Assembly: GCA_964557535.1 (NCBI GenBank)
Contig: CAZLAD010000004.1
Location: 19,039-83,038, forward strand
Direction: 5' to 3'
Length of the DNA: 64,000 bases
Origin: an uncultured Candidatus Saccharibacteria bacterium
GTDB lineage: Bacteria > Patescibacteriota > Minisyncoccia > Phycocordibacterales > CSBR16-119
Position numbers and translations under genes: made by a program. The notes under the pieces were generated by a model that was not told the DNA's origin, ran no database searches, and saw nothing but the letters and a program-made list of their open reading frames with translations. Below, one piece after another: positions 5,937-63,020 of this stretch. Numbering within the stretch: the first letter of the stretch is position 1; every line of letters begins with the position of its first letter.

Positions 5937-5961
5937 TCAACAACACTGCGATAATTGAAAA

Positions 5962-5995
5962 GGCCCGCCGCATGGCGGGCCTTCTCATTTTATTT
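5962..5995. terminator. Bidirectional intrinsic terminator (GGCCCGCC-GCAT-GGCGGGCC plus T-run) between convergent genes
   Basis: Perfect 8-bp GC stem flanked by an A-run (left) and a T-run (right). Confidence 0.7.
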
Positions 5996-6550
5996 TAATT
6001 CTTTGTATCGAAAACACGTCGTCAGGTGGTCATTTACCATCCCAATTCCTTGCATAAAGGCGTAAGTCACCGTCGAACCGCAAAATTTAAATCCGCGGGA
6101 TTTCATATCAGCGGCAATTTTGTCTGACAGCGGTGTTGTCGCGCGCATATGCGACGAGTGTTTCAATTTATTTTGAATCGGTTTGTTATCGACGAATCCC
6201 CAAATGTATTTTGAAAATGTTCCAAACTCCTCGCGAACTTTTATAAAGGCTTTTGCATTTGCAACCGTGCCGGCAATTTTCAAACGATTACGTATAATTC
6301 CTGGGTCTTTCAAAAGTTTCGCCTCTCTCGCTTTTGTATACTTCGCAATTTTTTGCCAATCAAAATTATCAAAGGCTTTGGCAAAATTTTCTCTTTTATG
6401 TAAAACGATTCTCCACGAAAGCCCAGCCTGAAAAGTATCTAGCACGATGGCACGAAAAATCTTTTTATCATCGCGCTCTGGTTTGCCCCACTCCGTGTCG
6501 TGGTATTTCTGCATCAACACATCTTCCTCTGGCCACGCACAACGTTTCAT
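5990..6550 (-). CDS. tag: DNA-3-methyladenine glycosylase I
   Basis: 186 aa. WGKP...DDKKIF..L.TFQAGLSW.IVL.KRENF..AF..FD and the C-terminal Zn-site cysteines and histidine are typical of Tag. Confidence 0.9.
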   Translation of the reverse strand: MKRCAWPEEDVLMQKYHDTEWGKPERDDKKIFRAIVLDTFQAGLSWRIVLHKRENFAKAFDNFDWQKIAKYTKAREAKLLKDPGIIRNRLKIAGTVANAKAFIKVREEFGTFSKYIWGFVDNKPIQNKLKHSSHMRATTPLSDKIAADMKSRGFKFCGSTVTYAFMQGIGMVNDHLTTCFRYKELK

Positions 6551-11871: not shown

Positions 11872-12353
11872 AAGATGGCACGTAATTATAGCATTTTCTC
11901 CATATTTGACAAAAAAAGATTATTAGTCTATTATATGCCACGATCACCGTTCTTTGACGTTCTGTTCTCACAAAAAGGTAAAGAGTTCCACCTAAAACGG
12001 GCTCACAAACTAAACTGTTCCAAGGAACAAGAAAAATGCTGACTGTGTATGGAATGTTGTGTCTCGGCACAACTGTGTGGGCCATCGGTACCGGTGGACA
12101 AAACGGTAAACCTTTAAAGCTTTGGAAACGATGATGCAGCCGGATGTAATGTTGGCGGTTGTAATCGTGACAGGGCTTGCGCTTTACCTATTCATACAAG
12201 CTTTTGTGCCAAGGATTTCGATCCGAGGCCGAAGCTGGCAAAAAAGTGAGGATGGGCAGACTGCCTAGCTGACGCGAGGCAGAACAACGTCTTCTGAGGA
12301 CTAGACGATGCGAAAGCATCCCACTGGCGTGGCAAAATCTGGTTCTCAACACT

Positions 12354-12392
12354 GAAGGGGTTTCCACGGGAGTGGAAGCCCCTTCTTTTTTT
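12354..12392 (+). terminator. Plus-oriented intrinsic terminator (GAAGGGGTTTCCAC-gg-GTGGAAGCCCCTTC plus TTTTTTT)
   Basis: 14-bp stem with one mismatch, followed by a 7-T run on the plus strand. No A-run on the other side, so it is oriented for a plus-strand transcript of the uvrA-uvrB spacer. Confidence 0.6.
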
Positions 12393-14421: not shown

Positions 14422-14449
14422 GCATGGATTATATTGTTTTGAAGCTTGA

Positions 14450-14836
14450 TTGACAACTTTCCTTATTAGTTTTAGTATGGCGAAAAACCAAACGGCCATG
14501 AAAATCTTGGATGCGAAGCAATACAGCGATTGCGACCTCGAGTATCTGAAAGGCAACGACAGGTATGTGCGATTGCTCGTGTTGAGCGACCTTGAGGCTC
14601 TATCGCTTGGAGACAAATCATCGAATAACCTCAGGGCCGGCCAAGAATTCATTGGCGTAATTGAGTCGAATCTGGGCTTCGGAAGAAGGCTCGAACTCTA
14701 CGGCCCCATGCTGGAAGAACTGGTTACAATCAAACCAATCTCTTCGGCGATCAAAACCGACTACGGAAGACTGCTTCTGACTGATCGGGATGGTGGTAAG
14801 CTCCTTCTCGAACTTCTACTGCCGCAGAAACCATAG
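14450..14836 (+). CDS. Hypothetical protein
   Basis: 128-aa ORF, divergent from uvrB, followed by the terminator at 14864-14893. An alternative start at MAKNQ is possible. Confidence 0.5.
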   Translation: MTTFLISFSMAKNQTAMKILDAKQYSDCDLEYLKGNDRYVRLLVLSDLEALSLGDKSSNNLRAGQEFIGVIESNLGFGRRLELYGPMLEELVTIKPISSAIKTDYGRLLLTDRDGGKLLLELLLPQKP

Positions 14837-14863
14837 GCAGAAACCGCTCTACAGAACGGTCAG

Positions 14864-14893
14864 GGCCCCTCACGGGGCTCTTTCTGTTTTTTA
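14864..14893 (+). terminator. Intrinsic terminator (GGCCCC-tcac-GGGGCT plus T-run)
   Basis: GC stem then CTTTCTGTTTTTT. Confidence 0.55.
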
Positions 14894-14995
14894 TAAAAAT
14901 AAAATATATCACTTTTCGGCGATAGCAGAGAAATGATATATTTTTCGATAACGAATTTCAGCGATAGCAGAAAAGTGTTATCGTGAAAATTTAAT

Positions 14996-15020
14996 GGATT
15001 AGAGGTCCGACCTCTAATCC
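14996..15020 (-). terminator. Perfect inverted repeat GGATTAGAGGT-ccg-ACCTCTAATCC 3' of the DUF1653 gene
   Basis: 11-bp perfect stem located 2 nt after the stop of 15022..15342. Confidence 0.55.
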
Positions 15021-15021
15021 A

Positions 15022-15342
15022 CTATGAATACATTCCGTCTCTTTTTTGCTCCAACTTTTTGATTATTTCCGGATCAGTGATTTTCTGAAATCTTTCAAAT
15101 GTCTTGCCGTCTTTCGTAACTATTTCCATAAACATACCGAGAGGTCTCACATCCCAATGCTTGCCGATTCCATACACACCCGCTGATTCGTACAACGGCC
15201 GATATACAACCATAGCCGATTCTTCAAGTCCGTCAATTTCTGTATGGTGACCAATATTCAAAACCTCATAAGCATAGTTAAACTCATCCTTGGCTGGGTC
15301 ATGTTTGTAATGATAATAAAATCCTTTTTCTGGTTTTTGCAT
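15022..15342 (-). CDS. DUF1653-like small protein
   Basis: 106 aa. YYHYKHDP...MVVYRPLYESAGVYGIGKHWDVRPLGMFMEIV resembles the DUF1653 core (YRHYKG...MVVY..LY..G.WVRP..MF). Confidence 0.6.
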   Translation of the reverse strand: MQKPEKGFYYHYKHDPAKDEFNYAYEVLNIGHHTEIDGLEESAMVVYRPLYESAGVYGIGKHWDVRPLGMFMEIVTKDGKTFERFQKITDPEIIKKLEQKRDGMYS

Positions 15343-27301: not shown

Positions 27302-28594
27302 CTAGTCGAAATGATTCCTGAGTCTTATGATCTTCTCGTTCGAACGGAGTTTTTCGTGGACTTTGGCTTCGATTTGGCGAATACGTTCACGGGTGACGCC
27401 GAATTCGTGCCCGACTTCTTCGAGCGTATGCTGGATGCCATCTTCTAGTCCGTAGCGCATCTCGAGAATTTTCTTTTCTTTTGGAGAAAGTTCGTTCAAA
27501 ACCTCTTTGATTTGATCAGAGAGGATTCGTTGCGCAGATTCTTGATCTGGTCGCATGATTTTGTCATCGGCAATAAATTCACCGAGCGTTGATTTGTCTT
27601 CGTCGTCGCCAATCGGTTTTTCGAGAGACGCTGTTGTCTGACTGATTTTTTCAATTACGTGAATTTTCTCTACCTCGACACCCATTTCGGTTGCAATTTC
27701 TTCGGCGAGTGGTTCTCTACCCAAATCCTGGAAAAGTCGGCGATAGACTTGTTTGTACTTCGAAATTGTTTCCACCATGTGAACGGGGATGCGGATAGTT
27801 CGAGATTGATCGGCAAGTGCACGCGTGATTGATTGGCGAATCCACCACGTTGCATATGTCGAGAATTTGTAACCCTTTTTCCAGTCGAATTTCTCGACGG
27901 CTTTGAAAAGTCCCAAGTTTCCTTCCTGGATGAGATCGAGAAGTGTGAGATCAGACGAGCGTCCGGCGTATTTCTTGGCAATCGACACGACAAGACGCAG
28001 GTTGGCGCGAGCAAGCAAATTTTTCGCTTCCAAATCTCCAAGCTCAATACGCTTCGCCAAATCTTTTTCTTGCTGAGCTTTGATGAGTGGATATTGGCCG
28101 ATTTCTTTCAGATACATCTGAATCGAGTCGCGAGATTTTTTGTCTTTGGTGTATTTGTCGATTGTCTTCTTGTCGATGACGTCCATGTCGAGCAAATTAC
28201 CACCCTCGATCACGTCAATCGAGGCTTCCATGAACTGAGAATACAAATCATCGAGCATGATAACGTCTGTTTCGATGTTTGGGAAAGTTTTTAGAATTTC
28301 GTCGTAGGTGATAAATCCACGCTTTTTGCCTTTGGTCACCAAATCATCAATTTTGGCTTTTATGGCGATGACTTTCGGATTCTTGGACTCGACTTTGGCT
28401 TTCGGTTGTGGCGCGGGTTTTGCTCCGCCCTTTTTCAAAGTTCGAGCAGGCTTTTTAACCGACTTTTTGACGGCCTTTTTCAACGTTTTTTTGACTTTCT
28501 TGACCTTTTTGACAACTTTCTTCGGCTTTTTGGCCTTCCCGCCTGCGCGGACAGATTTGATCGGCTTCTTGGAGTTCTTTTTTTTCATTTGCAT
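27302..28594 (-). CDS. rpoD: RNA polymerase sigma factor RpoD with a lysine-rich (histone H1-like) N-terminal tail
   Basis: 430 aa. Regions 2-4 are conserved ([28 protein letters not shown]...[18 protein letters not shown]). The N-terminal 70 aa are a K/A/V/P-rich low-complexity stretch. Confidence 0.95.
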
Positions 28595-49808: not shown

Positions 49809-50111
49809 TTATTTTGCTTCGGCTTCTTTCTTGGCCTGCTTGGTGCGTTTTGGCAAGACGTTCTTTTTCTTGGCGTCGACGATTTTTTGATCTACGAGAA
49901 AATTGTGAATCGTTCCCGATGCCTGCGCGCCCATTTTCAGCCAGTACTTTATACGGTCGGCTTTCAATTCTACGAGACCAGCCTTTGGATTGTAATTGCC
50001 AAGAATTTCCTGGAATTTACCACTCTGAGCAGAATCTGTGGACTCAGTCAAAACAACCCGAAATGCCGGGGTATTTACGCGTCCAGTTCTTTGTAATCTG
50101 ATTTTTAACAT
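49809..50111 (-). CDS. rpsP: 30S ribosomal protein S16 (start at MLKIRLQR)
   Basis: MLKIRLQRTGRVNTPAFRVVLTES is the S16 N-terminus. The ORF track extends 12 codons upstream. Confidence 0.95.
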   Translation of the reverse strand: MLKIRLQRTGRVNTPAFRVVLTESTDSAQSGKFQEILGNYNPKAGLVELKADRIKYWLKMGAQASGTIHNFLVDQKIVDAKKKNVLPKRTKQAKKEAEAK

Positions 50112-50160
50112 GTGATGGATATTAGCAGATATATGTTGAGGCGTCAATAAAAATGGATTG

Positions 50161-50184
50161 GCCCCGACCTTACGGGATCGGGGC
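50161..50184 (-). terminator. Hairpin GCCCCGA-ccttacggga-TCGGGGC
   Basis: 7-bp GC stem between the K-rich protein gene and rpsP. Confidence 0.5.
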
Positions 50185-50207
50185 GCAGAAAGTTTTGTAC
50201 TTATTGA

Positions 50208-50513
50208 TCATCGAGCGTAGCTCGGTCTCGATCTTGGCTTCGGTCTTTGGACAGAAGGTCGGTTGAAGCGCCTCTTCTTTCCTTTCTTCTTTCGAGCCTC
50301 GATCTTTTTGTCCCGTTTCTCCTTTTTCCTCTTTTCTCGCTCTTGGCGAAGCTTCTCGATAGTCTCATGATTGACACGAGCATCGATATCGCTAAATGTC
50401 AGGCTTTCGTCTTGATCAGCTTGACCTATCGCGAGTTTGTCAGAGATGCTCACAGTTCTACGAGCATCATCGAGTAGGAGTTCAGGAACTCTGCCTTTGA
50501 TCTCACTGGGCAT
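50208..50513 (-). CDS. Hypothetical protein with a highly basic K/R-rich C-terminus
   Basis: 101-aa ORF upstream of rpsP, where ffh is often found. It is not Ffh. Confidence 0.4.
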   Translation of the reverse strand: MPSEIKGRVPELLLDDARRTVSISDKLAIGQADQDESLTFSDIDARVNHETIEKLRQEREKRKKEKRDKKIEARKKKGKKRRFNRPSVQRPKPRSRPSYAR

Positions 50514-50583
50514 GGCTTGGATGATTTGTCTCTATTCTACCACACCTCTATAAAGGACAAAAGTAATATGTTAATATTGCCCT

Positions 50584-52533
50584 ATGCACAAAAAGAAAAG
50601 CCCTCCACCCCAAAGCCTAACCGGCATCATTCGTGTAAGCCAGCGCGGAACTGGCTATTTTCGTCTACCCGAAGGTCAGGCTGACGCCGAGATAAGTTAC
50701 GACGATTTGGGCACCGCGCTTCATGGCGACACAGTAAAAATTGAAAAAATCGGCGGTAAAATCCGTGACGGTGGTCCGCGCGCAAAAGTCATTGCCGTTA
50801 CAAAAAGAGCCAAGCGCGGATTTGCTGGAGAACTCGTTCACAATGGTCAGGATTTCGCTCTCAAGGCTTCTGACCCGCGCATGTACACACGAATCGTCAT
50901 CCCGAAGAAACTCGCCAAGGGCGCCAAAGTCGGTGACAAAATTTTTGTGACCCTAAGCACCTGGAAAGACATGAAATCAATTCCGCTTGGAAAAGTCGAC
51001 AAAATCCTTGGCCGTGCCGGTGAACACGAGGCCGAGATGCAGGGCATCATCTTAGAAAGGGGGTTCGAGTCCGGCTTCCCCGCCCTAGTTGAACGCGAAG
51101 CCGAAAAGATCAAACGCACACCACTTTCAGACGCAGAAATAAAACGTCGTCGTGACATGCGACACGTAACAACTTTTACCATTGATCCCGAAGACGCCAA
51201 AGACTTTGACGACGCACTATCATTTCGAAAGTTAGAAAGCCCGTCCGGCCAAAGTGAAAAATACGAAATCGGAATTCACATTGCCGACGTTAGTCACTAC
51301 GTAACCCCGGGAACAAATCTCGACAAAGAAGCTCTCGAACGGGCGACATCTGTGTATCTGGTCGACCGGACCATCCCGATGCTCCCAGAAATTCTCTCGA
51401 ACGATTTGTGTAGTCTAAATCCAGGCGTTGACAAGCTCGCCATGAGCGCCGTCTTTGAGATGGATGCAAACGGCCACGTATCAAAAGAATGGTTTGGGAA
51501 AACAATCATCAATTCAGACAAAAGATTCACATATGAAAATGCTCAAAAAGTTCTAGACGACGGAGGAGGCGAGTTTTTTGATGAACTAGACACGCTGAAC
51601 AAAATTGCAAAAAAACTAAATGCTCAAAGGATCAAAGACGGCGCAATTCTCATGGAGTCTGACGAGGTCAAATTCCGGCTCGACGAAAAAGGTAAACCAA
51701 TTTCTGTGTATATAAAAACTCGCGGAGATACAAACAAACTTATCGAAGAATTTATGCTCTTGGCCAATCGCCGAGTCGCCAAATGGGGTGGCAAAGACTC
51801 TTCGGGCAAGGACCGAGTTTTTATCTATCGCATCCATGACACACCAGACAAAGAAAAGGTAAAACTTCTAAAAGATTATCTCAAACTTCTGGGCTTTGAT
51901 TTGGCTGAACAAAAGGGCGTAGTAAAACCACACGAATGGAATCGACTCTTCAAAGATCTCGAAGGCCGAGCCGAACGAGACACTATCCAAACGACCGTCA
52001 TCCGTTCGATGGCCAAAGCAATTTATTCAACCAAAAACATGGGACACTATGGACTTGCTTTTGAATTTTATACCCACTTTACGTCGCCCATCAGACGTTA
52101 TCCAGACATCATCGCCCACAGACTACTTATGGACTACGTAAATGGTGTAAAAATTCCAAATGATCATATTGCCAAATTTCAAAAGATGTCCGAACATTGT
52201 TCCATGCGCGAAGTCGAAGCCGCCGAAGCTGAACGAGCGAGTATCAAATATAAACAAATGGAATACATGGCCGAGAGAATCGGACAAGATTTTGATGGAA
52301 TTATCACGGACATAAACGAATGGGGCATGTACGTCGCGGAAAAGACGACCAAGTCCGAAGGCGTTGTCCGTCTGCGTGATATTACAACCAACTCTTTTGT
52401 CTACGAAGAGAAAAAACTAATGCTAATCGACAAAAAAACCGATACGACTATGCGTATTGGCGACAATGTTCGCATCAAAGTAAAAAATGTGAACATCGAA
52501 AAACAACAAATAGACTATCTTTTGGTATCATAG
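50584..52533 (+). CDS. rnr: Ribonuclease R / RNase II-family exoribonuclease
   Basis: 649 aa. N-terminal cold-shock-like region, RNB catalytic core (DPEDAKDFDDALS, YRIHD, GHYGLAFEFYTHFTSPIRRYPD), C-terminal S1 domain. Confidence 0.9.
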   Translation: MHKKKSPPPQSLTGIIRVSQRGTGYFRLPEGQADAEISYDDLGTALHGDTVKIEKIGGKIRDGGPRAKVIAVTKRAKRGFAGELVHNGQDFALKASDPRMYTRIVIPKKLAKGAKVGDKIFVTLSTWKDMKSIPLGKVDKILGRAGEHEAEMQGIILERGFESGFPALVEREAEKIKRTPLSDAEIKRRRDMRHVTTFTIDPEDAKDFDDALSFRKLESPSGQSEKYEIGIHIADVSHYVTPGTNLDKEALERATSVYLVDRTIPMLPEILSNDLCSLNPGVDKLAMSAVFEMDANGHVSKEWFGKTIINSDKRFTYENAQKVLDDGGGEFFDELDTLNKIAKKLNAQRIKDGAILMESDEVKFRLDEKGKPISVYIKTRGDTNKLIEEFMLLANRRVAKWGGKDSSGKDRVFIYRIHDTPDKEKVKLLKDYLKLLGFDLAEQKGVVKPHEWNRLFKDLEGRAERDTIQTTVIRSMAKAIYSTKNMGHYGLAFEFYTHFTSPIRRYPDIIAHRLLMDYVNGVKIPNDHIAKFQKMSEHCSMREVEAAEAERASIKYKQMEYMAERIGQDFDGIITDINEWGMYVAEKTTKSEGVVRLRDITTNSFVYEEKKLMLIDKKTDTTMRIGDNVRIKVKNVNIEKQQIDYLLVS

Positions 52534-52627
52534 AGCCATGGATCCTGCGAGTGACCGAGGTCGCTTGGGGTGATATTTAAAAAACACAGGATCAAGCAAA
52601 AATTATTACAAATTAATTCGGGAAGCG

Positions 52628-55165
52628 GTGAGACCGCAACCTGTCACTATCGGGATGGATTCAGGTTCAAAAAAAAGCTGGGTGAAAGTTTTCTTGTGGA
52701 GCATTATTGCTATTGGTTTTGGACTGGCTTTTTCGGCGCTGGTGGTTCAGGCTTTTAGCGAGATCTCTACGAGAACCAAAACCCAAACGCAGACGAGCGA
52801 AAGCCTCACCGAAACGACAGGAAACAATCTACTAGCACAATTAAAAGACTTTAAATATAGAACTTTTAATAGAGCCAAAAATATTGCCGGGTCTTTGAAT
52901 TTTAGCTACATCACCCAAGCTCCGGTAAGAAAATATCATCTCGAGGACGAATCATTACGCCCTCATGTCGGGGCTTTGGCTTATGTGGTTGGAGATGCCG
53001 ACACCGGACAAATAATCATATCGAAAAACGGGGACACGGTTTCGCCGATAGCATCGGTGACCAAACTAATGACCGCGCTTACATCGCTTGAGAGTCTAGA
53101 CCAAAGCGAAACAACCAAAGTTTCGAGAAAAGCTGTCGAAACTCTGGGTCAAAGTGGTCTATCTCAGGGTGATCGCATGAAAATATCTGACCTTATCTAC
53201 CCACTTCTTCTCGTCTCGTCAAACGATGCTTCGGAAGTTTTGGCCGAACATGCCGGTCGTGAAAAATTCTTGGGCTGGATGAATCAACACGCCAAAGATA
53301 TCGGTATGGAAAATACAAATTTCAATGATCCGAGCGGTCTTTCGGCAAAAAACTCTTCCACGGCCGAAGATTTATTTTCGATGGCTCATTATTTGTTTAC
53401 CAAACATCGCACCGTCTTTAACATCACAAATCTAGAACGTTATAGTGCCGAAGGCAGAACTTGGGTCAATGCCAATCGTTTTTCGAGAAGGGACGATTAT
53501 CTGGGTGGCAAAACCGGCTACACCGACGCCGCTCATCGCACTGGTGTATTTATTTTCTCTAGTCCAATCGCCAACGGAGAAATTCGAAATATCGCTATCG
53601 CGTTACTAAAGACAGACGATCGTGTTTCTGACATCAACAGAATTTTGGATTATGTGAAAGAAAATGTTTATTATTCATACGAAAATTCTACACAAGAAAA
53701 AGAAAGTGAAGTTACTCTTGGATTTGTTGGCGACATCATGCTTGATCGAGGTGTAAAAACTTCAATCATAAAAAACTTTGGTGGAAATTATGAAAAAATA
53801 TTGGCCGAAGCGCCAAGAATTCTCCAGCCAGATATTATGTTTGGAAATCTAGAAGGTCCAATTTCTGACAAAGGCACAAAAATTGGTAGCATCTACTCTT
53901 TTCGAATGGACCCGCTTTCGACCAAGGCTTTGAAAGAAGCTGGATTTGATGTCTTGTCTTTTGCTAACAATCACGTCGGTGATTATTCGACTCCCGCTTT
54001 TCTCGACACACTCGGCAGACTCAAAGAAGAAAACATCCTTTACGTCGGGGCTGGAGAAAACCACGCAGAAGCTTCTCGGGCGACAATCGTGGAAAGAGAC
54101 GGTGTCCGAATTGGATATTTGGCAATGTCGGACGTTGGCCCAGAATTTATGAAAGCGACCGAAGAAAAAATGGGCATACTTTTGGCGAGCGACAAAAATC
54201 TCGACGCTATTGTGAAGGAGGCAAAAGAATTGTCGGATATTTTAGTTGTGTCTGTTCACTGGGGCGACGAATACAAACCTCATAACAAAAAACAAGAAGT
54301 GCTAGCCAAGAGGTTGATTGATAACGGTGCAAATATTGTTGTCGGACATCATCCTCACGTTCCGCAAGATGTCGTAAATTACAAAGACGGCTTGATATTT
54401 TATTCTCTCGGTAATTTTGTTTTTGACCAATATTTCTCAAAAGAAACAATGGGCGGACTTTATGCCGAAGTTGTTGTGACCAAAAAAGGAATAAAAAGCC
54501 ACACCGAAACACCTTTTGTAATAAATGAAAAATATCAACCGATTCTGGGCAACAAAAAGACGGCCTCTTCCCCATCGACGGTATTTGAACGAGGATCTTG
54601 TCCTGTCGGAAACTCCGAAACAAACGAAACTTTTACAAATGTAAGTAATAAAAAATCTGTTGGTAAGTATATTCCAGAAAATCTAGTCGAAATCAGTAAA
54701 GTAATCCCGACAAAAGAAGGTAGAGAAATATGTCTTCTCGAGGAATCCGCCGTGGAACTTGAAAAAATGATTGTTGATGCAAAAAACAACAACGTCGACA
54801 TCTCTATAACTTCTGGTTTTCGAAGTTTTGAAATCCAAGAAATACTTTACGAAAACAGAAACACAACCGCCGAAGAAGAGTCAATTGCTATCCCTGGGCA
54901 TTCGGAACATCAGCTAGGTACAACCATAGATATAACGAGTGCCGAGATTGGAAACGCCTCAGCTAGCACGTTACTTAAAAACACCAAAGCCTTTGAGTGG
55001 ATGTCAGAAAATGCTCACAAATATGGCTTCGTCATGAGCTACCCAGAAAATCGTGATACGGGTTATATTTTCGAACCATGGCATTGGCGATATGTCGGTG
55101 CTGAAACTGCCAAAGAAATCAAAACAAAAAACCTAACAATCCAACAATATTTAGGGGAGATATAG
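52628..55165 (+). CDS. Tri-domain membrane-anchored cell-wall enzyme: S11 PBP5-like DD-carboxypeptidase (SVTK, SSND, KTG) + CapA-like metallophosphoesterase + VanY-like M15 DD-carboxypeptidase
   Basis: 845 aa. S11 motifs SVTKLMTALT / SSNDAS / GKTGYT. CapA-like GDIMLDRG...FANNHVGDY...VHWGDEY...VVGHHPHV. M15 SGFRSFEIQ...HSEHQLGTTIDI...EPWHWRY. Confidence 0.85.
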   Translation: MRPQPVTIGMDSGSKKSWVKVFLWSIIAIGFGLAFSALVVQAFSEISTRTKTQTQTSESLTETTGNNLLAQLKDFKYRTFNRAKNIAGSLNFSYITQAPVRKYHLEDESLRPHVGALAYVVGDADTGQIIISKNGDTVSPIASVTKLMTALTSLESLDQSETTKVSRKAVETLGQSGLSQGDRMKISDLIYPLLLVSSNDASEVLAEHAGREKFLGWMNQHAKDIGMENTNFNDPSGLSAKNSSTAEDLFSMAHYLFTKHRTVFNITNLERYSAEGRTWVNANRFSRRDDYLGGKTGYTDAAHRTGVFIFSSPIANGEIRNIAIALLKTDDRVSDINRILDYVKENVYYSYENSTQEKESEVTLGFVGDIMLDRGVKTSIIKNFGGNYEKILAEAPRILQPDIMFGNLEGPISDKGTKIGSIYSFRMDPLSTKALKEAGFDVLSFANNHVGDYSTPAFLDTLGRLKEENILYVGAGENHAEASRATIVERDGVRIGYLAMSDVGPEFMKATEEKMGILLASDKNLDAIVKEAKELSDILVVSVHWGDEYKPHNKKQEVLAKRLIDNGANIVVGHHPHVPQDVVNYKDGLIFYSLGNFVFDQYFSKETMGGLYAEVVVTKKGIKSHTETPFVINEKYQPILGNKKTASSPSTVFERGSCPVGNSETNETFTNVSNKKSVGKYIPENLVEISKVIPTKEGREICLLEESAVELEKMIVDAKNNNVDISITSGFRSFEIQEILYENRNTTAEEESIAIPGHSEHQLGTTIDITSAEIGNASASTLLKNTKAFEWMSENAHKYGFVMSYPENRDTGYIFEPWHWRYVGAETAKEIKTKNLTIQQYLGEI

Positions 55166-55223
55166 GTGCTTGACAAAAGATAAGATATATGTTAGGGTCT
55201 AGCCAAACCTGAACCCCAACAAC

Positions 55224-55571
55224 ATGGCAATCAAGAAAAGTGCTAAGTCCCTCGCGGACAACTCGACCAAGAAGGATGGGCCCACCCACCCGAAAAAGAG
55301 CCCACGGAAGCGCAAATCGCCAGTGAGCACTCGGCCATTCCGAGTGACCCGTGGCTTCGCCAAGAATCGTCGGGTGAAGTTCTGGATGGACCTCCTGATG
55401 ACCTTCGAACCGGTAGATCAGAAAGCGTGCCTCGAGGCAATCAGCTGGCGCATACCGAAAGACAACGGTCGCAACAAAACAGCTGAACAGGCACTGAAGT
55501 CCCTCTTGCGGAACCATGTGGTGGTGCCCATGGACGCTATCGTGCCGGCGCTCAAGAAGCGCTCACTCTGA
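55224..55571 (+). CDS. Hypothetical basic protein, GC-richer
   Basis: 115-aa ORF followed by the terminator at 55630-55667. Confidence 0.45.
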   Translation: MAIKKSAKSLADNSTKKDGPTHPKKSPRKRKSPVSTRPFRVTRGFAKNRRVKFWMDLLMTFEPVDQKACLEAISWRIPKDNGRNKTAEQALKSLLRNHVVVPMDAIVPALKKRSL

Positions 55572-55629
55572 CCACGCACGATCAACCGGCTACTCATGAA
55601 AAAGTGAGCCGGCAAAGCCATGCATGCAT

Positions 55630-55667
55630 GAAGCCCCCGACCTCGTCGGGGGCTTCTTCTTTTTTTA
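55630..55667 (+). terminator. Intrinsic terminator GAAGCCCCCGAC-ctc-GTCGGGGGCTTC plus T-run
   Basis: 12-bp stem followed by TTCTTTTTTT. Confidence 0.7.
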
Positions 55668-55720
55668 CTTCGCGTAATTTTCGGCTTCGGAGAATTTGAT
55701 GGAGGAGCTTGGAACCGCCA
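55661..55720. repeat. Direct repeat copy 1 (about 60 bp, about 85% identical to 56891-56950, which is the smc 3' end)
   Basis: TTTTTTACTTcGCGTAaTTTTCgGCtTCgGAGAATTTGAT... aligned position by position to the second copy (36 of 41 identities in the core). Confidence 0.8.
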
Positions 55721-55849
55721 AAACAAAGTCATTTTCCAAGAATATTCAGAGAGGTTGTAGAAAAAAAATCTAAAAATTAAATCATCCTAAAATGAAGAAT
55801 GGTTCTAGAATACTGAGCCATTATATAACCTTGACATTAGCTATCTTCT

Positions 55850-56857
55850 ATGATAGAAGTAAATCAAACCAGAACAAACATGCGAACCGAAGATCTTCTA
55901 GACACACCTGATCTCGAGGAAAGAAGTGACTCTTTGATACCAGGCTTTAGAAGATTTTACTTCGAAAGCATCAAAGGGATTCGACTCCTGTCTCGCGACG
56001 AAGAATACGATCTGGGCGTAAAAAGCTCAAAAGGTGATAAAGTAGCGACCCAGAAGCTTGTCTACCATAACCTGAAATTCGTGGCCTGGAAAGTTCTCGA
56101 ATTTCTTGGATACCTAAGATACGACCGAGCTCTGTCTTTCGAAGACCTATTCCAACACGGGTCAATCGGACTCTGGAAAGCTGCAAAAAACTACAGACCC
56201 AGGAAAGACGTTAAATTCTTGAGCTATGCTGTCTTCAGCGTTGATGAAGCAATCATGACAGCAATCAGGAACAACCGTTTGATCAGAGTAAAGTCTGTGG
56301 GTCGCAAGTTAATCAAGAAATACGACCATGCTTTCGATCTCATTACCCATGATGTCGAAACCAACTACGCGCTGATTGAAGACGTGGCTGACGAAATGAA
56401 AATCGACGAGGAAAAAGTGCGGAAGATTTGCCTTTGGAAAGAACTTCTCCGTGTCGATAACCTAGATCAGCTTGCGTCTGAAGAAGATGGCGCCATCTGT
56501 TTCGATATCCTCGACAAAGATGCGCTAGAGCCAGACTCAGCTGCCCACGAAACGAGCCTGAAGGAGTTTCTTGAGATTTACTTGGGGAAGCTTTCCAACC
56601 TGACTACCAAGGAACAAGAAATAGTGACGATGTATTTCGGGCTAGCTGATCAAGAGAAGGTGAGCATGGAAGATATCGCCAAGATGTACGACCTACAAAG
56701 AGAGCGCGTGCGGCAAATAAAGGAGAAAGCACTACGGAGACTTCGATGGGGTGCTGGTCGATTACTCTTGGAGGTGTACCTTGATGATCCTTATGTGAGC
56801 GAGAGGATCAAGCACAGATTAGCCATGAGCCTGCGGAGTATTTTCGTAAGCCATTGA
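55850..56857 (+). CDS. Sigma-70-family RNA polymerase sigma factor (alternative, about 38 kDa)
   Basis: 335 aa. Region 2 (LVYHNLKFVAWKV...IGLWKAAKNY), region 3, region 4 HTH (MEDIAKMYDLQRERVRQIKEKALRRLR). Confidence 0.85.
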   Translation: MIEVNQTRTNMRTEDLLDTPDLEERSDSLIPGFRRFYFESIKGIRLLSRDEEYDLGVKSSKGDKVATQKLVYHNLKFVAWKVLEFLGYLRYDRALSFEDLFQHGSIGLWKAAKNYRPRKDVKFLSYAVFSVDEAIMTAIRNNRLIRVKSVGRKLIKKYDHAFDLITHDVETNYALIEDVADEMKIDEEKVRKICLWKELLRVDNLDQLASEEDGAICFDILDKDALEPDSAAHETSLKEFLEIYLGKLSNLTTKEQEIVTMYFGLADQEKVSMEDIAKMYDLQRERVRQIKEKALRRLRWGAGRLLLEVYLDDPYVSERIKHRLAMSLRSIFVSH

Positions 56858-56862
56858 GCAAG

Positions 56863-56898
56863 AACCGCTGACCCTTCGGGTCGGCGGTTCTGTTTTTT
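56863..56898. terminator. Bidirectional terminator GAACCGCTGACCC-ttcg-GGTCGGCGGTTC plus T-run
   Basis: 13-bp stem between the convergent sigma gene and smc. Confidence 0.7.
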
Positions 56899-56950
56899 AC
56901 TTGGCGTAGTTTTCAGCGTCTGAGAATTTGATTGATAGGAGTTTTGATCC
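56891..56950. repeat. Direct repeat copy 2 (includes the last 14 codons of smc)
   Basis: See copy 1 at 55661-55720. Confidence 0.8.
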
Positions 56951-59134
56951 GCCGTCAGATCCAATTGTTACACCGTAAATGACATCGGCACGAGACATTG
57001 TTTCTCTGTTGTGAGTGACGGTGATAAGTGAAGAATATTTCGAAAGAATTTCGATCATATCGCCATAACGTTTAGAATTGGCTTCGTCGAGTGCCGCATC
57101 CGTTTCATCGAGAACCAAAAATGGCGGCGGGTTAACTTGAGTCATGGCAAAGACAAGCGCGATAGAAGTAAGTGAGCGTTCGCCACCAGAAAGCATGGCC
57201 AGGTCTTTCACCTTCTTTTGTGGCAAAGTCACGTTAATCTCAATACCATAATCAAGTCTCTCTTCCTCGTCCGCATCCGAACTTTCTCCAGACTCATCGT
57301 CTTCTTCCGAATCATTTTTCTTTGATCCCTGAACAATGCTAGACAGATAAGCTGCGCCACCACCAAACATAAGTTTGAAAAATTCCTCAAAACGAACATT
57401 GATTTTCTCCATGCCTTCTTTGAATTCTCTGTCCAGAGTTTCTTTAAGATCGTCAATAAGTGTACGTAAATTGGAAATACTTTTTTCTAAATCTTCGAGC
57501 TCTTTGACCAAGAAATTATCTCGTTCTGTAATACTTTGATATTCTTTCATTACGTCATCGCCAGAGCCAGTACCCGCGTCTTCGAGTTTGATTTTGAGAC
57601 GCTCAATGTTGTGACGCATCTCGTCAGTGACTTCGACAATCGAAATATCACTTGTTCGAAATTGTAAAATTTCTTGACCAACCAAAACGACAGCTTCTTT
57701 GACTCCTTCTTCAAAAGAAGCTTTTCGCTTTTTGAAAAATTCATTTCGGTTTTGGAGAATTTCTTCTTCGGCCAAAATCTTGTTCTTTTTATTTTCAAGA
57801 GCAAATTTTTCTTCTTGGTCTTTGAACATCGTCACTCTATTTGACTCAATCGAAGAACGCAAAGAATTCATTTTTTCCAAATGAACTTTTCTTACTCTTT
57901 CAATTTCTTCTAGCTGAGCCGCGACTTCACGCTTTGTAACTTCTAGATCCTTGAAAGAGTTTGGTTTGTTTTCAGCTTTATTTTGTTTAAATCTCTGGCC
58001 AAAGTCCGTTATAGCTTTTCTCAAATACTTGAGATTTGATTTTATAACTTCGAGGTTTGAATCCGCCAAAGATCTTTCGAGAGTGCTTTCCATCTCACTA
58101 ATGAACGTCTCGAGGTCGCTTGATTTGATTGAAATACTGTCTGGTTTATCAGTTGTCGATCGATTCTCAAATTCGATCATACCTTCGATACGTCCAAGCT
58201 TTCTGGATAAATCATCTTTGGTTCGTTCAAGCGAAACAATTTCTTTTTCCAAATTACTGATTTCGATATTTTTTGAAGACTCGAAATCATTTGTTGAGAC
58301 ATCTTTCATCGAAGCTAATTTGACTTCAATTTCTTTTAGTTCGCGTTCTCGATCGTGATTTTTACTTTTCAGGAAAGCTTCTTCGTTTTGTAAAAACTTT
58401 TCTTCTGATTTGAAAAAGGTTAAATAAAGTTTAGAAAGTTCACTTCGAAGCTCGACGCTTTTTTCAACTTTTTCAACTTGTTTCTTGAGATATTTTATAT
58501 GTGGCGCAAGTTCACGACGAAGCATTCCGACTTCTTTCATGTTCTCTTCGGTCTTTTCAAGTTTCTTGTGCGATTCTTTGAGTTTGTTTTGATAAACTTT
58601 GAGACCTAAAGCATCCTCAATCATGATCCGACGATCTTTGGCTGAACTTGTGAGAATCCTGTCGGCTTGACCCTGAGAAATAATATGGTGACCCGAAGCA
58701 CCGATATTTACCGAAGCCAACATTTCGACAATGTCTTTCAAACGAACAGCTGAATTGTTGATGTAGTAGATATTATTTCCGTCGGCAAAGACTTCACGCT
58801 TCAAAATTATTTCGTCGAAATCTAGATTGATTGGCTCGGAACGTTCACCCAATTTAAAAACGCGATCTTTGTTATCAAAAGTTATTTCGACTGACGCACG
58901 TGAGCCTTTTGGTAAATCTTTTGAGCCTTTGAATATAAGGTCCGAGCCCGACTTTCCACGCAGAGATTTCATTGATTGTTCGCCAAGGACAAACCGGAAA
59001 GCTTCAACAACGTTTGATTTTCCAGATCCGTTTGGCCCGACGATTCCAACAACCGGCACGTCAAAATCCAGTCTGCTTTTTTTGGCAAACGACTTAAACC
59101 CGAGAAGTTCAATCCTCTTTAATTTCACCCCCAT
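56897..59134 (-). CDS. smc: SMC-family chromosome segregation ATPase (short, 745 aa)
   Basis: N-terminal Walker A GPNGSGKSN, C-terminal signature LSGGERSLTSIALVFAM and Walker B LVLDETDAALD, long coiled-coil middle, rnc-smc synteny. Confidence 0.85.
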   Translation of the reverse strand: MGVKLKRIELLGFKSFAKKSRLDFDVPVVGIVGPNGSGKSNVVEAFRFVLGEQSMKSLRGKSGSDLIFKGSKDLPKGSRASVEITFDNKDRVFKLGERSEPINLDFDEIILKREVFADGNNIYYINNSAVRLKDIVEMLASVNIGASGHHIISQGQADRILTSSAKDRRIMIEDALGLKVYQNKLKESHKKLEKTEENMKEVGMLRRELAPHIKYLKKQVEKVEKSVELRSELSKLYLTFFKSEEKFLQNEEAFLKSKNHDRERELKEIEVKLASMKDVSTNDFESSKNIEISNLEKEIVSLERTKDDLSRKLGRIEGMIEFENRSTTDKPDSISIKSSDLETFISEMESTLERSLADSNLEVIKSNLKYLRKAITDFGQRFKQNKAENKPNSFKDLEVTKREVAAQLEEIERVRKVHLEKMNSLRSSIESNRVTMFKDQEEKFALENKKNKILAEEEILQNRNEFFKKRKASFEEGVKEAVVLVGQEILQFRTSDISIVEVTDEMRHNIERLKIKLEDAGTGSGDDVMKEYQSITERDNFLVKELEDLEKSISNLRTLIDDLKETLDREFKEGMEKINVRFEEFFKLMFGGGAAYLSSIVQGSKKNDSEEDDESGESSDADEEERLDYGIEINVTLPQKKVKDLAMLSGGERSLTSIALVFAMTQVNPPPFLVLDETDAALDEANSKRYGDMIEILSKYSSLITVTHNRETMSRADVIYGVTIGSDGGSKLLSIKFSDAENYAK

Positions 59135-59280
59135 ATTTTACCACACCAGGCAAAGAAAAATCCTCATAAAAAGGACTCTCGCAAGAAAAAGCCCGCCTTT
59201 TGAAGGGCGGGCTTTTCGAGAGGGAGAAGTTTGTCGTTTACAGACAAAACTTCGTGCCTTTTTATGAGTATTTTTCTTTG

Positions 59281-59973
59281 CTAATCCAACCACTTTTTTA
59301 GCTTGAGTGCTTCCTGAGCCGCAGCCTGCTCACCTTCTTGTTTGGATTTGCCGGAGCCTTTGGCAATAAGTTCATCTCCAAAAAATACACCGATAGTAAA
59401 ATTCTTATCATGGTCTGGGCCGGTTTCTTCAAGCACTTCATAGCGCGGCGTAATGTTCACAATCTCTTGAGCTTTTTCTTGGATTAGAGACTTGGAATCG
59501 CGCCAAAGTTTCTGAGCAACGATTTTTTCAATCTTGCCAAACAAAGCATCGGCTATGAATTTCTTGGCCGCATCATAACCAGCGTCTAGAAATATCGCGC
59601 CGATAACTGATTCGAAAGTGTTAGCGAGAATGTAGTCACGTGCCTTGCCTGTATCTTTGGCTTCGCCTTTGGACAAAAGAAGATAGTCGTTCATGCCAAG
59701 CTCCACCGCCGCAGCAGAAATCGAAACGGTATTAACGACAGCCGCACGGATAGCGGTTAGGTCGCCCTCTGATTTACCTGGGTAGCGTGCAAAAAGCTCT
59801 TCAGTTGTGACGAGTTCAAGCACCGCATCGCCCAAAAATTCTAGGCGTTCATTGTGAGACCCTGCACCAGCGTTTTCGTTTATATATGATCGATGAGTAA
59901 AAGCTTGTTTTAGTAGATCCTTGTCTTTGAAGTCTAAGTTATTTTCGGTTTCAAATTTCGCGAAGTTCGGCAT
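59281..59973 (-). CDS. rnc: Ribonuclease III
   Basis: 230 aa. ERLEFLGDAVLELV signature, C-terminal dsRBD. Confidence 0.95.
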   Translation of the reverse strand: MPNFAKFETENNLDFKDKDLLKQAFTHRSYINENAGAGSHNERLEFLGDAVLELVTTEELFARYPGKSEGDLTAIRAAVVNTVSISAAAVELGMNDYLLLSKGEAKDTGKARDYILANTFESVIGAIFLDAGYDAAKKFIADALFGKIEKIVAQKLWRDSKSLIQEKAQEIVNITPRYEVLEETGPDHDKNFTIGVFFGDELIAKGSGKSKQEGEQAAAQEALKLKKWLD

Positions 59974-59979
59974 AATTTT

Positions 59980-60879
59980 TTATTTATTGGTAACGTAGTC
60001 GATTGACTGCGCCAGAAGCGGCAGTATATCGTCGTAGGTGTTTATACTTTCTAATTCGGAGAGCTTGAACCACCTGGCGTCATCGAGTCCGCCGTTTGAA
60101 TGAAGGTCCATCTCCTTCCAGGGCGTCTTTACCAGATAGTAGCTAACCTGTTTTAGGATTTTACCTTTTTCCGGATGAGATGCAACATATTCATTTTCAC
60201 CCAAAAGTTTAACGATTTCGACATCCAGTCCGGTCTTTTCTTTTATCTCGCGGATTGCGCCCTCTTCGGAAGTTTCATTTCCTTCCACTCCACCCTTGGC
60301 TAGCGTCCAATAACCAAAAACATCGTGCACGAGCCCGACCAAAGTTTCTCCATCTTTCTCTGTAATGATTACTCCGCCGGCTTTCTTCTCTTTTGGAAGT
60401 TTTTCTGGATCGTCTTCGTTATTTGCGCGTTTCTTTGGAGTGATCTGATCTTTGCCTGGTTCCCCCATTTCTTTGTAAACTGCGCCCAAAACACCGTTGA
60501 CGAATTTGCCAGATTTCTCGCCACCGAAAGTTTTTCCAAGTTCGATGGCTTCGTTGATAGCAACCTTTGGCGGAACCTCATCTTTGTTTGAAAACAAAAG
60601 TTCAGCCAGACCAATGCGCAAAACATTGCGATCAACAATCGCAATTTTATCCATTGGCCAATCAGGCGCGGCTTTTTCTATGATCTCATCGATGAGAACA
60701 TATTTTTTTAAAACCTGATCAAGCAGGTGTTTGGTAAAGGAGACTTCTTTCATTCCTGGCGCAAACTCGGCAAGATTGCGTTCGAGATATTCTGGAGCAG
60801 ATTCATTTTTCTGCCCATTAAAATCCCACTCAAAAAGTGTTTGTAAAACGACTGATCGTGCAAGGTGCCTATTGGCCAT
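59980..60879 (-). CDS. nusB: NusB antitermination factor fused to a C-terminal NUDIX hydrolase domain
   Basis: aa 1-140 are NusB-like (ARSVVLQTLFEWDF...KFVNGVLGAVYKEMGE). aa about 165-299 carry a Nudix box GGVEGNETSEEGAIREIKEKTGL. Confidence 0.8.
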   Translation of the reverse strand: MANRHLARSVVLQTLFEWDFNGQKNESAPEYLERNLAEFAPGMKEVSFTKHLLDQVLKKYVLIDEIIEKAAPDWPMDKIAIVDRNVLRIGLAELLFSNKDEVPPKVAINEAIELGKTFGGEKSGKFVNGVLGAVYKEMGEPGKDQITPKKRANNEDDPEKLPKEKKAGGVIITEKDGETLVGLVHDVFGYWTLAKGGVEGNETSEEGAIREIKEKTGLDVEIVKLLGENEYVASHPEKGKILKQVSYYLVKTPWKEMDLHSNGGLDDARWFKLSELESINTYDDILPLLAQSIDYVTNK

Positions 60880-60937
60880 AATGATAAGAACAAATTCTAT
60901 TAAAAGACTCTAATATTCTAACAAAGAAATAACTTAA

Positions 60938-61022
60938 GTGCGAGGTTTGATTGTGATTTTCCGACCGTTTGGTCTGGTTAGGTTAGGAGGAAGGAAAATT
61001 ACAAGCAAACCGAGCGCGAGCC
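60938..61022 (+). ncRNA. Copy B of the repeated ~80-nt structured element, immediately 3' of rpmF
   Basis: GTGC-GA-GGTTTG ... CAAACC-GA-GCGC closing helix with a U.G wobble on the plus strand. Internal GACC-GTTT-GGTC hairpin and GGTTAGGTTAGGAGG tract. Confidence 0.45.
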
Positions 61023-61024
61023 AA

Positions 61025-61216
61025 TTACTTGGCTTTTGATTTCTTGTCGCTAGATTTAACAACTGCCAAGACTTGTTTGCCTCGGTATTTGCCAGTTTCG
61101 AGTGAGACGCGATGACGAAGATGAGGAGTATTTGTCTCCTTATCGATAACGATATTCGCCATCGGTGCTCTATGATGAGACCTACGATTTTTCGTATGGG
61201 CTCTTGTGTGTCGCAT
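61025..61216 (-). CDS. rpmF: 50S ribosomal protein L32 (start at MRHTRAHTKNRRSHH; the ORF track extends to 61336)
   Basis: KNRRSHHRAP...THLRH...YRGKQV matches the L32 consensus (K.S.SRR..RRAHHAL......TG..HLRHH....G.YRG..V). Confidence 0.85.
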   Translation of the reverse strand: MRHTRAHTKNRRSHHRAPMANIVIDKETNTPHLRHRVSLETGKYRGKQVLAVVKSSDKKSKAK

Positions 61217-61294
61217 TCGGACTACCATGGCAACCAGTATACGGAAAACAGGGATTTTTGCAAGTTTTTGAGCTTTTACACAATTGTCTGGATT

Positions 61295-61579
61295 ATGGAG
61301 CCGTGGTATCCTTGGCCCATGGATGGTCTTGAACAAAAAATAGACAAGCTAATAAATACTATTGAAGGAATCGACAAAAAACTCGACGGCCATATTGAAT
61401 TTGTCGCTGAACGCATGACGAAGATCGAAGACCGTCTTGATGGCATGTCGACTAAAGCTGATTTGCAAAATGCCAAACAAGAACTCTTTGATAAGATTTC
61501 CGAAAATAAATACGAGATCCAGGGCAAAGTTAATGATCACGAAGTTCGTATCCAAAAATTAGAAACTAACATCGCCTAA
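61295..61579 (+). CDS. Hypothetical coiled-coil protein (start at MEPWYPWPMDGLEQKIDK)
   Basis: The trimmed 94-aa version of ORF 61112..61579 avoids overlap with rpmF. Heptad-like composition. Confidence 0.4.
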   Translation: MEPWYPWPMDGLEQKIDKLINTIEGIDKKLDGHIEFVAERMTKIEDRLDGMSTKADLQNAKQELFDKISENKYEIQGKVNDHEVRIQKLETNIA

Positions 61580-61580
61580 T

Positions 61581-61769
61581 ATGACCCCAAATAATTTACA
61601 TAATTTGATGACACAGATGACCCAAGAGCAGAAGTCTCTCTGGCGCATCGAACAAAACTATATAAAAGAAGCCGGTAGCGACGTCGAGAAAGCTTTCTGG
61701 GAAAGCCTCCACAACGAAAAGAAAATGCATATCGAGGAATTGCGGAAATTGATTAAAGAAAATATTTAG
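61581..61769 (+). CDS. Hypothetical small protein
   Basis: 62-aa ORF followed by a weak hairpin plus T-run at 61776-61805. Confidence 0.3.
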   Translation: MTPNNLHNLMTQMTQEQKSLWRIEQNYIKEAGSDVEKAFWESLHNEKKMHIEELRKLIKENI

Positions 61770-61805
61770 CTAAACAAAAAACCCTATTCGGGTATTTTTT
61801 GTTTT

Positions 61806-63020
61806 CTAGATAATTTCAACTCTTTTCTTTATTTCTATATTCATAGATTTTATAAATTCGACGAAATCTTTCTTGGCTTTTTTTCTTAGCAGCCAACCAG
61901 GAAGCTTATCGCGATATTCGTCAGAAATTTTTCCATAAAAAGATGCGTACTTTTGTATTAATTCCGCTTCTTTTTTCTTTACCTCTTCTGGCATTTCAGA
62001 ACTGCTAAAACTACGCGCGTCAGAGGATGCACCCCAACTCTCTTCCACATCTTTTAATAGTCTATCGACTTCGGCAATATTTATAAGTTCCTCTTTGACC
62101 TGCTGGACAAACAAATTAATAGCAGACGTTCGTAACTCCAAGACTAAACCCCAATCTAAAGATTTATACAGAACATCGAGTTTCTGCTGCATGTCTCTTT
62201 CCACCAGATCAAATTCCCCACGATCCCATTTTAAAATTTCTTCTTTTATTTTAGATCGCAAAGAACCAATATCAACGCCTATCGAACCCATGGATTCAAT
62301 AATCAATTTTATTTCTTCCTTTTTCTTTCCTTTGAGATCAAACAAAGAATCTAGAGATTCTTCTTTGTTGGAAATCTTCTCAAAAAAATCTATTTTTTCA
62401 TCTTCAGACATTTCACGAATATCTGGAATCTCTTCGAGAATCTGATCTTTAACGACAGTTTCTCCATGCTCTTGAATCCCTTGAATAGCTTCCGACATCT
62501 TAGCGGAATAAAGTTGTGAAGATTTTAATGTATCGATTTTTTCTTTTGGGGCGTTGTAGAGACGGATTGATTGATCATATAGTTTATCCATGAGCTTCTC
62601 GGTCATCGGATTTTGGAGGAGTGAAAAAACATACCCACGCACTGTTCCCTCGAGTGGTCTATTACGTGGCGACCCTTTAAGACCAACACGATCTAGCCCT
62701 TCAAAAACACCCAAGCTTTTTAAAAGTTCATATTTAGATTTCTTATCCAAAGAATAATAGTCATCGAAACTCTGGAACCCAAAAGTTTTTAAGGCTCCAA
62801 CAAATTCTTTTGGGGTTAAAAGTGAGCCTGGCCATGCCCAATTACCTTTTTCTGCCATTTCAAGCCACTCTTCATCATCAAAAGCAGGTAGTGGTTTAAT
62901 TTCTCCAGATCTTTCCTTCTTCATCGTCTCGGTCCAATATTCGGGCATATCAACCAAAGGCTGTTCAGTATCTTTAGCTTTTTCTTTCTTTGCTCCAGGT
63001 TTTGGAATATTTCCTTCCAT
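61806..63020 (-). CDS. Hypothetical protein (404 aa, acidic, helical) immediately downstream of gyrB
   Basis: Long ORF 4 nt after the gyrB stop. No family recognised. Confidence 0.55.
   Translation of the reverse strand: MEGNIPKPGAKKEKAKDTEQPLVDMPEYWTETMKKERSGEIKPLPAFDDEEWLEMAEKGNWAWPGSLLTPKEFVGALKTFGFQSFDDYYSLDKKSKYELLKSLGVFEGLDRVGLKGSPRNRPLEGTVRGYVFSLLQNPMTEKLMDKLYDQSIRLYNAPKEKIDTLKSSQLYSAKMSEAIQGIQEHGETVVKDQILEEIPDIREMSEDEKIDFFEKISNKEESLDSLFDLKGKKKEEIKLIIESMGSIGVDIGSLRSKIKEEILKWDRGEFDLVERDMQQKLDVLYKSLDWGLVLELRTSAINLFVQQVKEELINIAEVDRLLKDVEESWGASSDARSFSSSEMPEEVKKKEAELIQKYASFYGKISDEYRDKLPGWLLRKKAKKDFVEFIKSMNIEIKKRVEII

Follow-up and report, generated by a model that had tools for sequence, protein, structure and literature searches.

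In homology-facilitated illegitimate recombination, incoming foreign DNA carries a homologous anchor on one side, and its other side is linked illegitimately to the recipient through a short GC-rich match, so that a remnant of a recipient gene persists (PMC3240628). The process is reported for Acinetobacter, S. pneumoniae, P. stutzeri and E. coli in PMC3240628 and in references given in PMC5361080, and displaced 3' ends are likewise described there for other systems. Displacement is also found in rhs and type VI secretion system (T6SS) effector-immunity loci. There, an incoming module brings the 3' end of a gene, and the displaced resident 3' end is kept with its downstream gene as an extra unit of an orphan array (PMC5361080, after Jackson et al. 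2009 as cited there). A third system is the e14 prophage at icd, with the 3' duplicate pseudo-icd' (PMC6379469). Natural competence has been shown in Saccharibacteria (PMC10633639). This report concerns a locus in a 64,000-nucleotide stretch of an uncultured Candidatus Saccharibacteria bacterium (assembly GCA_964557535.1, contig CAZLAD010000004.1), called the window below. The locus is the intergenic slot between a DD-carboxypeptidase fusion gene (DDCP) and a gene for an SMC-like protein (smc), in which an accessory sigma factor gene is found.

As read from its sequence, the window has the intergenic slot between these convergent housekeeping genes, DDCP and smc, in two tandem versions. The slot is counted twice because a remnant of a DDCP tail and a second copy of a promoter-like motif precede the sigma gene. 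Its features are as follows, with lengths in nucleotides (nt) or amino acids (aa) and open reading frames abbreviated ORF.

52628-55165, plus strand: DDCP gene, a fusion of Peptidase_S11, PGA_cap and VanY (Pfam), 845 aa; left border gene of the slot.
55170-55198, plus strand: promoter-like motif P1, TTGACA-N17-TAGGGT, directly 3' of the DDCP stop, with a leader to an ATG at 55224.
55224-55571, plus strand: small basic ORF, 115 aa, 57% GC, GC content at third codon positions (GC3) 0.72; cargo of unit 1.
55630-55656, no strand assigned: hairpin 1, a 12-bp stem followed by a T-run; terminator of unit 1, like the post-smc hairpin of the relatives L003/L166.
55665-55719, minus strand: smc-tail remnant (copy 1), 19 codons reading GGSKL(L)SIKFSEAENYAK-stop, with one 2-nt deletion.
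55716-55760, plus strand: DDCP-tail remnant, RQNKVIFQEYSERL-stop, directly right of the smc-tail remnant and on the opposite strand.
55831-55859, plus strand: promoter-like motif P2 before the sigma gene, TTGACA at 55831-36, N17, TAGAAG at 55854-59.
55850-56857, plus strand: accessory sigma-70 family gene, a 335-aa ORF with Pfam, NCBIfam and PHROG matches.
56861-56891, no strand assigned: hairpin 2, a 14-bp stem followed by a T-run; terminator of unit 2.
56897-56953, minus strand: functional smc tail (copy 2), the last 19 codons including the stop.
56897-59134, minus strand: SMC-like gene, 745 aa, Pfam SMC_N at residues 5-727; right border gene of the slot.
56952-61520, no strand assigned: block of smc, rnc, a nusB-NUDIX fusion and orf155, 98-100% identical to a related lineage, T (L165/L171/L003).

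Unit 1 runs from P1 through the small basic ORF and hairpin 1 to the smc-tail remnant, which represents the last 57 nt of the gene. Unit 2 begins with the DDCP-tail remnant (about 45 nt) and continues with P2, the sigma gene, hairpin 2 and the complete smc. The cargo genes of the two units are unrelated, their hairpins and promoters are different, and the DDCP-tail remnant is unlike the tail of the resident gene.

The locus resembles homology-facilitated illegitimate recombination in both of its ends. Foreign DNA continues into a homologous anchor, here the smc-rnc-nusB block, and at its other end a short GC-rich match appears to have served for an illegitimate joint that left a recipient-gene remnant. 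It differs in that the case is known from sequence, the incoming DNA is apparently a haplotype of the same locus, and the product looks like a heterologous tandem duplication. With the rhs and T6SS loci it shares an incoming module that brings a gene 3' end, a displaced 3' end kept with its neighbouring gene as an extra unit, and hypervariability between strains. Here, however, the displaced gene is the housekeeping gene smc, whose protein tail is almost unchanged, where those loci have a polymorphic toxin. Either a sigma factor or a small basic ORF serves as cargo, and the border gene on the other side has left a remnant too. As at icd, the 3' end of a protein gene is duplicated with mainly synonymous differences and an Asp/Glu change, and the functional gene is intact. 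Unlike e14, the locus has no integrase and no element genes, and the insert is bordered by the remnant of a neighbouring chromosomal gene.

DDCP is syntenic in the relatives L001-L004, L165, L166 and L179. The gene of the window ends in KTKNLTIQQYLGEI-stop, and the C-termini of its relatives are RANKMTIQEYLENL-stop in L004, RTNKMTIQEYLKGL-stop in lineage T and DDGLTIQEYLESL-stop in L001. In a stop-anchored test, 2478 peptides of 14 residues preceding a stop in the six frames of the window were scored against the relatives' DDCP tails. The remnant ranked first of the 2478 with a score of 39, followed by the genuine DDCP tail of the window (34) and the next unrelated peptide (24); the mean was -6.6 and the standard deviation 7.1. 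Thus the remnant is closer to the tails of relatives, for instance that of L004, than the window's own DDCP tail is. In a manual count of the peptides, it has 9 of 14 residues in common with L004 and 2 of 14 with the resident tail. The smc-tail and DDCP-tail remnants overlap in a GC-rich CCGCC (55715-55719), which is the rearrangement junction and may represent the microhomology of the crossover.

The promoter-like motif is duplicated as well. Directly after the DDCP stop, ahead of small ORFs, TTGACA-N17-TAnnnT with an A/C-rich leader is found in the window and in L165, L166 and L001, and a variant, TTTACA-N17-TATAAG, precedes the sigma gene of L179. Relatives have one copy of this motif and the window has two. 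Upstream of P2, TATAACCTTGACA resembles the version of the promoter in lineage T. P1 and P2 are probably promoters, although P1 scores under the threshold of a promoter consensus scan.

These features bear on an origin within a single genome. In such a scheme, the slot underwent an internal tandem duplication within W, the lineage to which the window belongs. Two later replacements by homologous recombination put the sigma gene in place of one unit's cargo and the T-like block in place of smc. The junction would have the same geometry, since the end of a segment (the smc-tail remnant) is joined to the start of a segment (the DDCP-tail remnant). Moreover, the slot is demonstrably swapped between the conspecific strains L165 and L166, and the T-like block could be a separate, later event. 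The near-identical copies of a simple tandem duplication are not found, however: hairpins, promoters and cargo all differ between the units, the DDCP-tail remnant has the residue counts given above, and at least two further events are required. This history is considered unlikely. Local duplication, which an earlier note on this DNA had put forward as one source of the repeats described next, survives in part: a tandem-duplication junction describes the geometry better, but the units are too different for a simple duplication.

The two smc tails form a direct repeat. A repeat finder matched 55661-55703 to 56893-56935 (43 nt, 86% identity), and the match extends to CCGCC (55719 / 56953) if a 2-nt gap is allowed. 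Its local alignment score is 31.5, compared with maxima of 14.5 in 1000 dinucleotide shuffles and 14.0 among 306 other 400-nt chunks of the window. The earlier note had described an imperfect direct repeat of about 60 bp and had allowed that its similarity might not be significant when scored properly. The repeat is real (55661-55719 against 56893-56953), with a score above all shuffles and window chunks. The borders given for copy 1 can be kept; those of copy 2 are better set at 56893-56953 than at 56891-56950. A GC hairpin and T-run do precede each copy on the plus strand, at 55630-55656 and 56861-56891. The interval between the copies contains the sigma-70 gene and its terminator, as had been said, but not only these, because the DDCP-tail remnant at 55716-55760 and a promoter-like motif lie there too. 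The longest exact runs common to both copies are about 10-11 nt (TTTTTTACTT, GAGAATTTGAT), and no crossover core is definable.

Copy 2 is the C-terminus of smc on the minus strand and reads GGSKLLSIKFSDAENYAK-stop, and copy 1, although non-functional, has the smc-like reading GGSKL(2-nt deletion)SIKFSEAENYAK-stop; both were proposed before and both hold. The sole lesion of copy 1 is the loss of 2 nt within a run of CTCCTCTCC. All nine substitutions between the copies fall at third codon positions, eight of them synonymous and one changing D to E (P ~5e-5 under equal rates). Against the tails of L165, L166, L004 and L002, too, copy 1 shows zero differences at first and second positions, and its nearest functional allele is the tail of L004, at 5 differences. 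Since neutral decay would not give a pattern of exclusively third-position changes, copy 1 reads as the tail of another functional smc allele and not as a decayed local duplicate. None of the 78 other smc loci examined has a second smc tail. The third-position differences were also considered alone as proof that copy 2 arrived as a foreign tail together with the sigma gene; this argument is weakened by the smc body, which is itself T-like.

The arrangement in related genomes suggests that the sigma gene is an addition to the slot. The SMC protein of the window retrieves metagenome-assembled genomes of Patescibacteria, the four nearest being L003 (99% at the amino acid level), L004 (90%), L001 (72%) and L002 (68%). 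All four keep the gene order nusB-NUDIX, rnc, smc, converging on DDCP and RNase R. A comparison of this kind had been asked for in the earlier note, and it finds no sigma gene between smc and DDCP in L001-L004 or in the other contigs of the L003 lineage, T (L165, L166, L171). The note's view that the gene sits in a rearranged spot, made by recombination at the smc 3' end, is borne out. In L001, L003, L004, L165, L166 and L171, DDCP is followed by a small ORF or nothing and then by the convergent smc, without a remnant; L002 also lacks one.

The gap itself is highly variable. It is 65 nt long in L004; in L001 and L003 it spans about 400-450 nt and includes a convergent small basic ORF. In L002 it measures 5 kb (10328-15325) and contains three unrelated large ORFs (585, 581 and 422 aa) without Pfam matches. 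Within lineage T, L165 and L166 are strains of one species and match at 98-100%; identity falls to 44-88% only in a stretch made up of the final ~180 nt of smc and the adjoining DNA as far as the small ORF, which is included. Because these strains differ strongly only there, recombination evidently exchanges the slot, its crossovers lying in the smc tail. Between L165 (9900-10500) and L166, which equals L003, the small basic ORFs are unrelated (103 vs 106 aa) and the smc tails diverged, as in a hypervariable slot. GC3 of the small slot ORFs is elevated (0.59-0.72) against a genomic GC content of about 42-43%.

On the right side of the slot, the window contains DNA of another lineage. Lineage T is a widespread lineage at species level, represented by L165, L171, L166 (=L003) and at least 23 contigs from many samples. 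Both flanks of the block at 56952-61520 are 70-83% identical to lineage T, compared with 98-100% within the block, which points to a recent inter-lineage homologous replacement of about 4.6 kb. The sigma gene is contiguous with this block, as fits a foreign segment joined to a donor-type anchor. W and T occur together in JGI sample 3300045398, where the W contig stops at window position 61600 and the T contig begins at the equivalent of 61654. Breaks at the border of the block are expected where two genomes share it.

Co-occurrence of W and T in at least one sample and the mosaic nature of the region could also suggest that assembly joined co-occurring strains into a chimera. Over 13 kb (49850-62857), however, the window is 100% identical to an independent Logan assembly of SRR12487045. 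Chimeras formed at k-mers do not make back-to-back, in-frame remnants of gene tails with an indel, and the junction lies in unique sequence. An artefact of this kind is scarcely credible.

The preferred reading, given a probability of about 60%, is an illegitimate recombination at the level of microhomology with DNA from a sigma-bearing relative. In this model, unit 1 would be the resident version of the slot and unit 2 would come from another haplotype of the same locus. An illegitimate crossover at CCGCC (~55715-55719) would join the resident smc tail to the incoming DDCP tail, and the right end of the incoming DNA would be resolved by homologous recombination at ~61.5 kb. Such a geometry would correspond to homology-facilitated illegitimate recombination or, equivalently, to a heterologous tandem-duplication junction. 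Both border genes would be left intact, with their dead tails back-to-back at the junction, and the genome would gain a second, divergent sigma factor, probably driven by a slot promoter of its own. A single recombination with a sigma-bearing haplotype would be most economical because the units differ in cargo, hairpin and promoter and because the DDCP remnant is more like the tails found in other lineages. The sequence directly shows the joint and the truncated smc tail; the match at CCGCC on the incoming side is proposed. Together, the dead tails of both border genes, the duplicated promoter motif and the near-identical foreign block point to transformation-like recombination between co-occurring species-level lineages.

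Several observations weigh against this model. A donor with the sigma gene beside a T-type smc has not been seen, and all T contigs found lack the gene. No W genome without unit 2 was found either: a metagenome scan with the basic ORF returned nothing, one with the DDCP C-terminus gave no relative above 49% identity, and exact-protein look-ups of DDCP and SMC returned the same sample only. A single event and its direction are put forward here as the probable course. The DDCP-tail remnant has only ~62% nucleotide identity to the tails of T and L004, a similarity without significance when nucleotides are simply aligned locally; it took the stop-anchored peptides to bring it out. Finally, all 5 mismatches between the window and L165 in the last 300 nt of smc lie inside the 57-nt repeat (56900-56951), beginning 3 nt or less from its inner border, and the model leaves this clustering to chance. 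Gene conversion from the smc-tail remnant was tried as a source of the mismatches and rejected, with converted and unconverted sites being interleaved. They are left as coincidence or as polymorphism of the donor.

The same cluster would fit a small sigma cassette that integrated site-specifically into the 3' end of smc, replaced the tail with one of its own in the manner of e14 at icd, and later lost its integrase. The mismatches to L165 begin exactly at the inner border of the repeat, and the direct repeats consist of a gene 3' end whose copies differ for the most part synonymously, apart from a D/E change, in parallel to icd and e14 (PMC6379469). Insertion at the smc 3' end with duplication of the target, like an att site, was the first choice of the earlier note, but it does not fit the content of the insert. 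No recombinase is found in the 1.2-kb insert, which holds the sigma gene only, or in the syntenic housekeeping neighbourhood. The smc tails are two alleles, the other 78 smc loci are free of the remnant, and the sigma factor has no viral relative in a scan of viral contigs. At its left end the insert has the remnant of a DDCP tail, followed by the promoter motif of the slot, and it is therefore best seen as another haplotype of the same chromosomal locus and not as a mobile element. Integration of this type is judged very improbable.

The slot of a further relative raises the question of polarity. In L179, which is about as distant from the window as L001, the order is RNase R, DDCP and sigma, convergent with SMC; the sigma gene (P0123, at 5574-6530) occupies the same slot, without the small ORF and without remnants. 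Conversely to the preferred model, the sigma unit could be resident in the window, as it is in L179, and the basic-ORF unit could have been imported with 57 nt of a foreign smc tail, anchored by homology in DDCP or RNase R. The smc-tail remnant is indeed nearest to the L004 allele, with fewer differences than T has to L004. However, the left flank shows no jump in identity toward any known lineage up to the DDCP stop, and the clearly foreign, T-like DNA is on the sigma side. The DDCP-tail remnant beside the sigma gene is also unlike the DDCP of the window, so that replacement of the resident DDCP would be needed as well. Import of the basic-ORF unit is distinctly unlikely.

In the preferred model, the event is of a well-known type, unusually well resolved here in an uncultured lineage; it refines existing knowledge and does not overturn it. 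The locus may be taken as a base-pair-resolved case of an ultrasmall, uncultured bacterium gaining a regulatory gene without mobile-element machinery.

The sigma gene encodes a protein of the sigma-70 family, which presumably functions as a sigma factor. Its true start is likely the ATG at 55880, giving 325 aa, because of the placement of P2 and because the alignment with P0123 begins at residue 11. Pfam recognises region 2 (score 40.7, cut-off 24) and region 4 (48.9, cut-off 24.1), with region 1.2 borderline. As in RpoD/RpoS-like members of the family (groups 1-3), regions 1.2, 2 and 4 are recognisable and region 4.2 (RERVRQIKEKALRRLR) is canonical. It differs from them in falling below the cut-offs of all named NCBIfam families (RpoD, RpoS, RpoH, FliA, SigB/F/G, MzaA; best 122 bits against a cut-off of 572), in the replacement of a conserved motif and in an extra insertion and extension. 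A PADLOC match to MzaA covers the generic sigma part alone. The canonical rpoD is found elsewhere in the window (27302-28594), adjoining dnaG.

The protein was at first taken for an orphan, as a word-indexed search gave nothing above 37% identity, until an exhaustive search found P0123 (43%) and P0124 (34%). In these three proteins, the WWIRQ motif of region 2.3/2.4 is replaced by FSVDE (window sigma), WHIDG or VAIDN. All three have extra residues inserted behind region 2.1 and are extended at the C-terminus by an L(D)DPY motif, and region 4.2 is canonical in P0123 and P0124 as well. They are flagged as a small, previously unnamed family of accessory sigma factors in Patescibacteria (window sigma 55880-56857, P0123, P0124). 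P0124 (L180, 7001-7945) has another context, between a DksA/TraR-like gene and a ComM/Mg-chelatase-like gene. The viral-contig scan for relatives of the sigma factor found zero. Because L179 holds a 43%-identical sigma gene in the same slot, the sigma gene is one of several alternative cargos of the slot and not a mobile-element gene.

A broader proposal, which is speculative and more probably wrong than right by a wide measure, is that the DDCP-smc gap of this Patescibacteria clade is a dedicated expression slot equipped with a promoter. Its cargo (unrelated small basic proteins, a sigma family with a rebuilt -10-recognition region, large ORFs) would be shuffled between strains and species via recombination anchored in both convergent 3' ends. 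If true, the slot would resemble a cassette array that works without an integrase, and it might be connected with host or phage interactions. The strain-variable slot beside smc is flagged as worth following.

The small basic ORF looks like the resident occupant of the slot. The earlier note had allowed that this gene might belong to the insert; L001, L165 and L166, however, hold small basic ORFs of 103-106 aa in the same position behind the same motif. Pairwise sequence similarity between the basic ORF of the window and these positional analogues is not significant. The protein collection searched contains no homologue, and Pfam, NCBIfam, PHROG and PADLOC give no match. The Logan annotation calls no gene at the ORF, and its status as a putative coding sequence depends only on its GC3 skew and position. 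The surrounding GC-rich segment (55170-55670, up to 59% GC) has long ORFs on both strands and folds better than shuffles do (z = -3.6), and an Rfam scan of 55100-55900 returned zero RNA families.

The SMC-like protein scores 505.6 bits against TIGR02168, under the cut-off of 567, and has no match to the Pfam hinge domain. It appears to be a short form of SMC that is characteristic of the clade. In relatives the SMC-like proteins are 733-760 aa long, compared with 745 aa in the window.

Further observations concern the neighbouring genes. On the minus strand at 61806-63020, orf404 (404 aa) lies between a terminator and the stop of gyrB and is absent from L003, L004 and all T contigs. Its flanks were checked for duplicated gene ends, of which there are none. 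It has no family match; a single relative is 47% identical, and the identical protein occurs in four samples. Two gene fusions near the slot are unusual and conserved in relatives: the Peptidase_S11, PGA_cap and VanY fusion of DDCP (52628-55165) and the NusB-NUDIX fusion (59980-60879).

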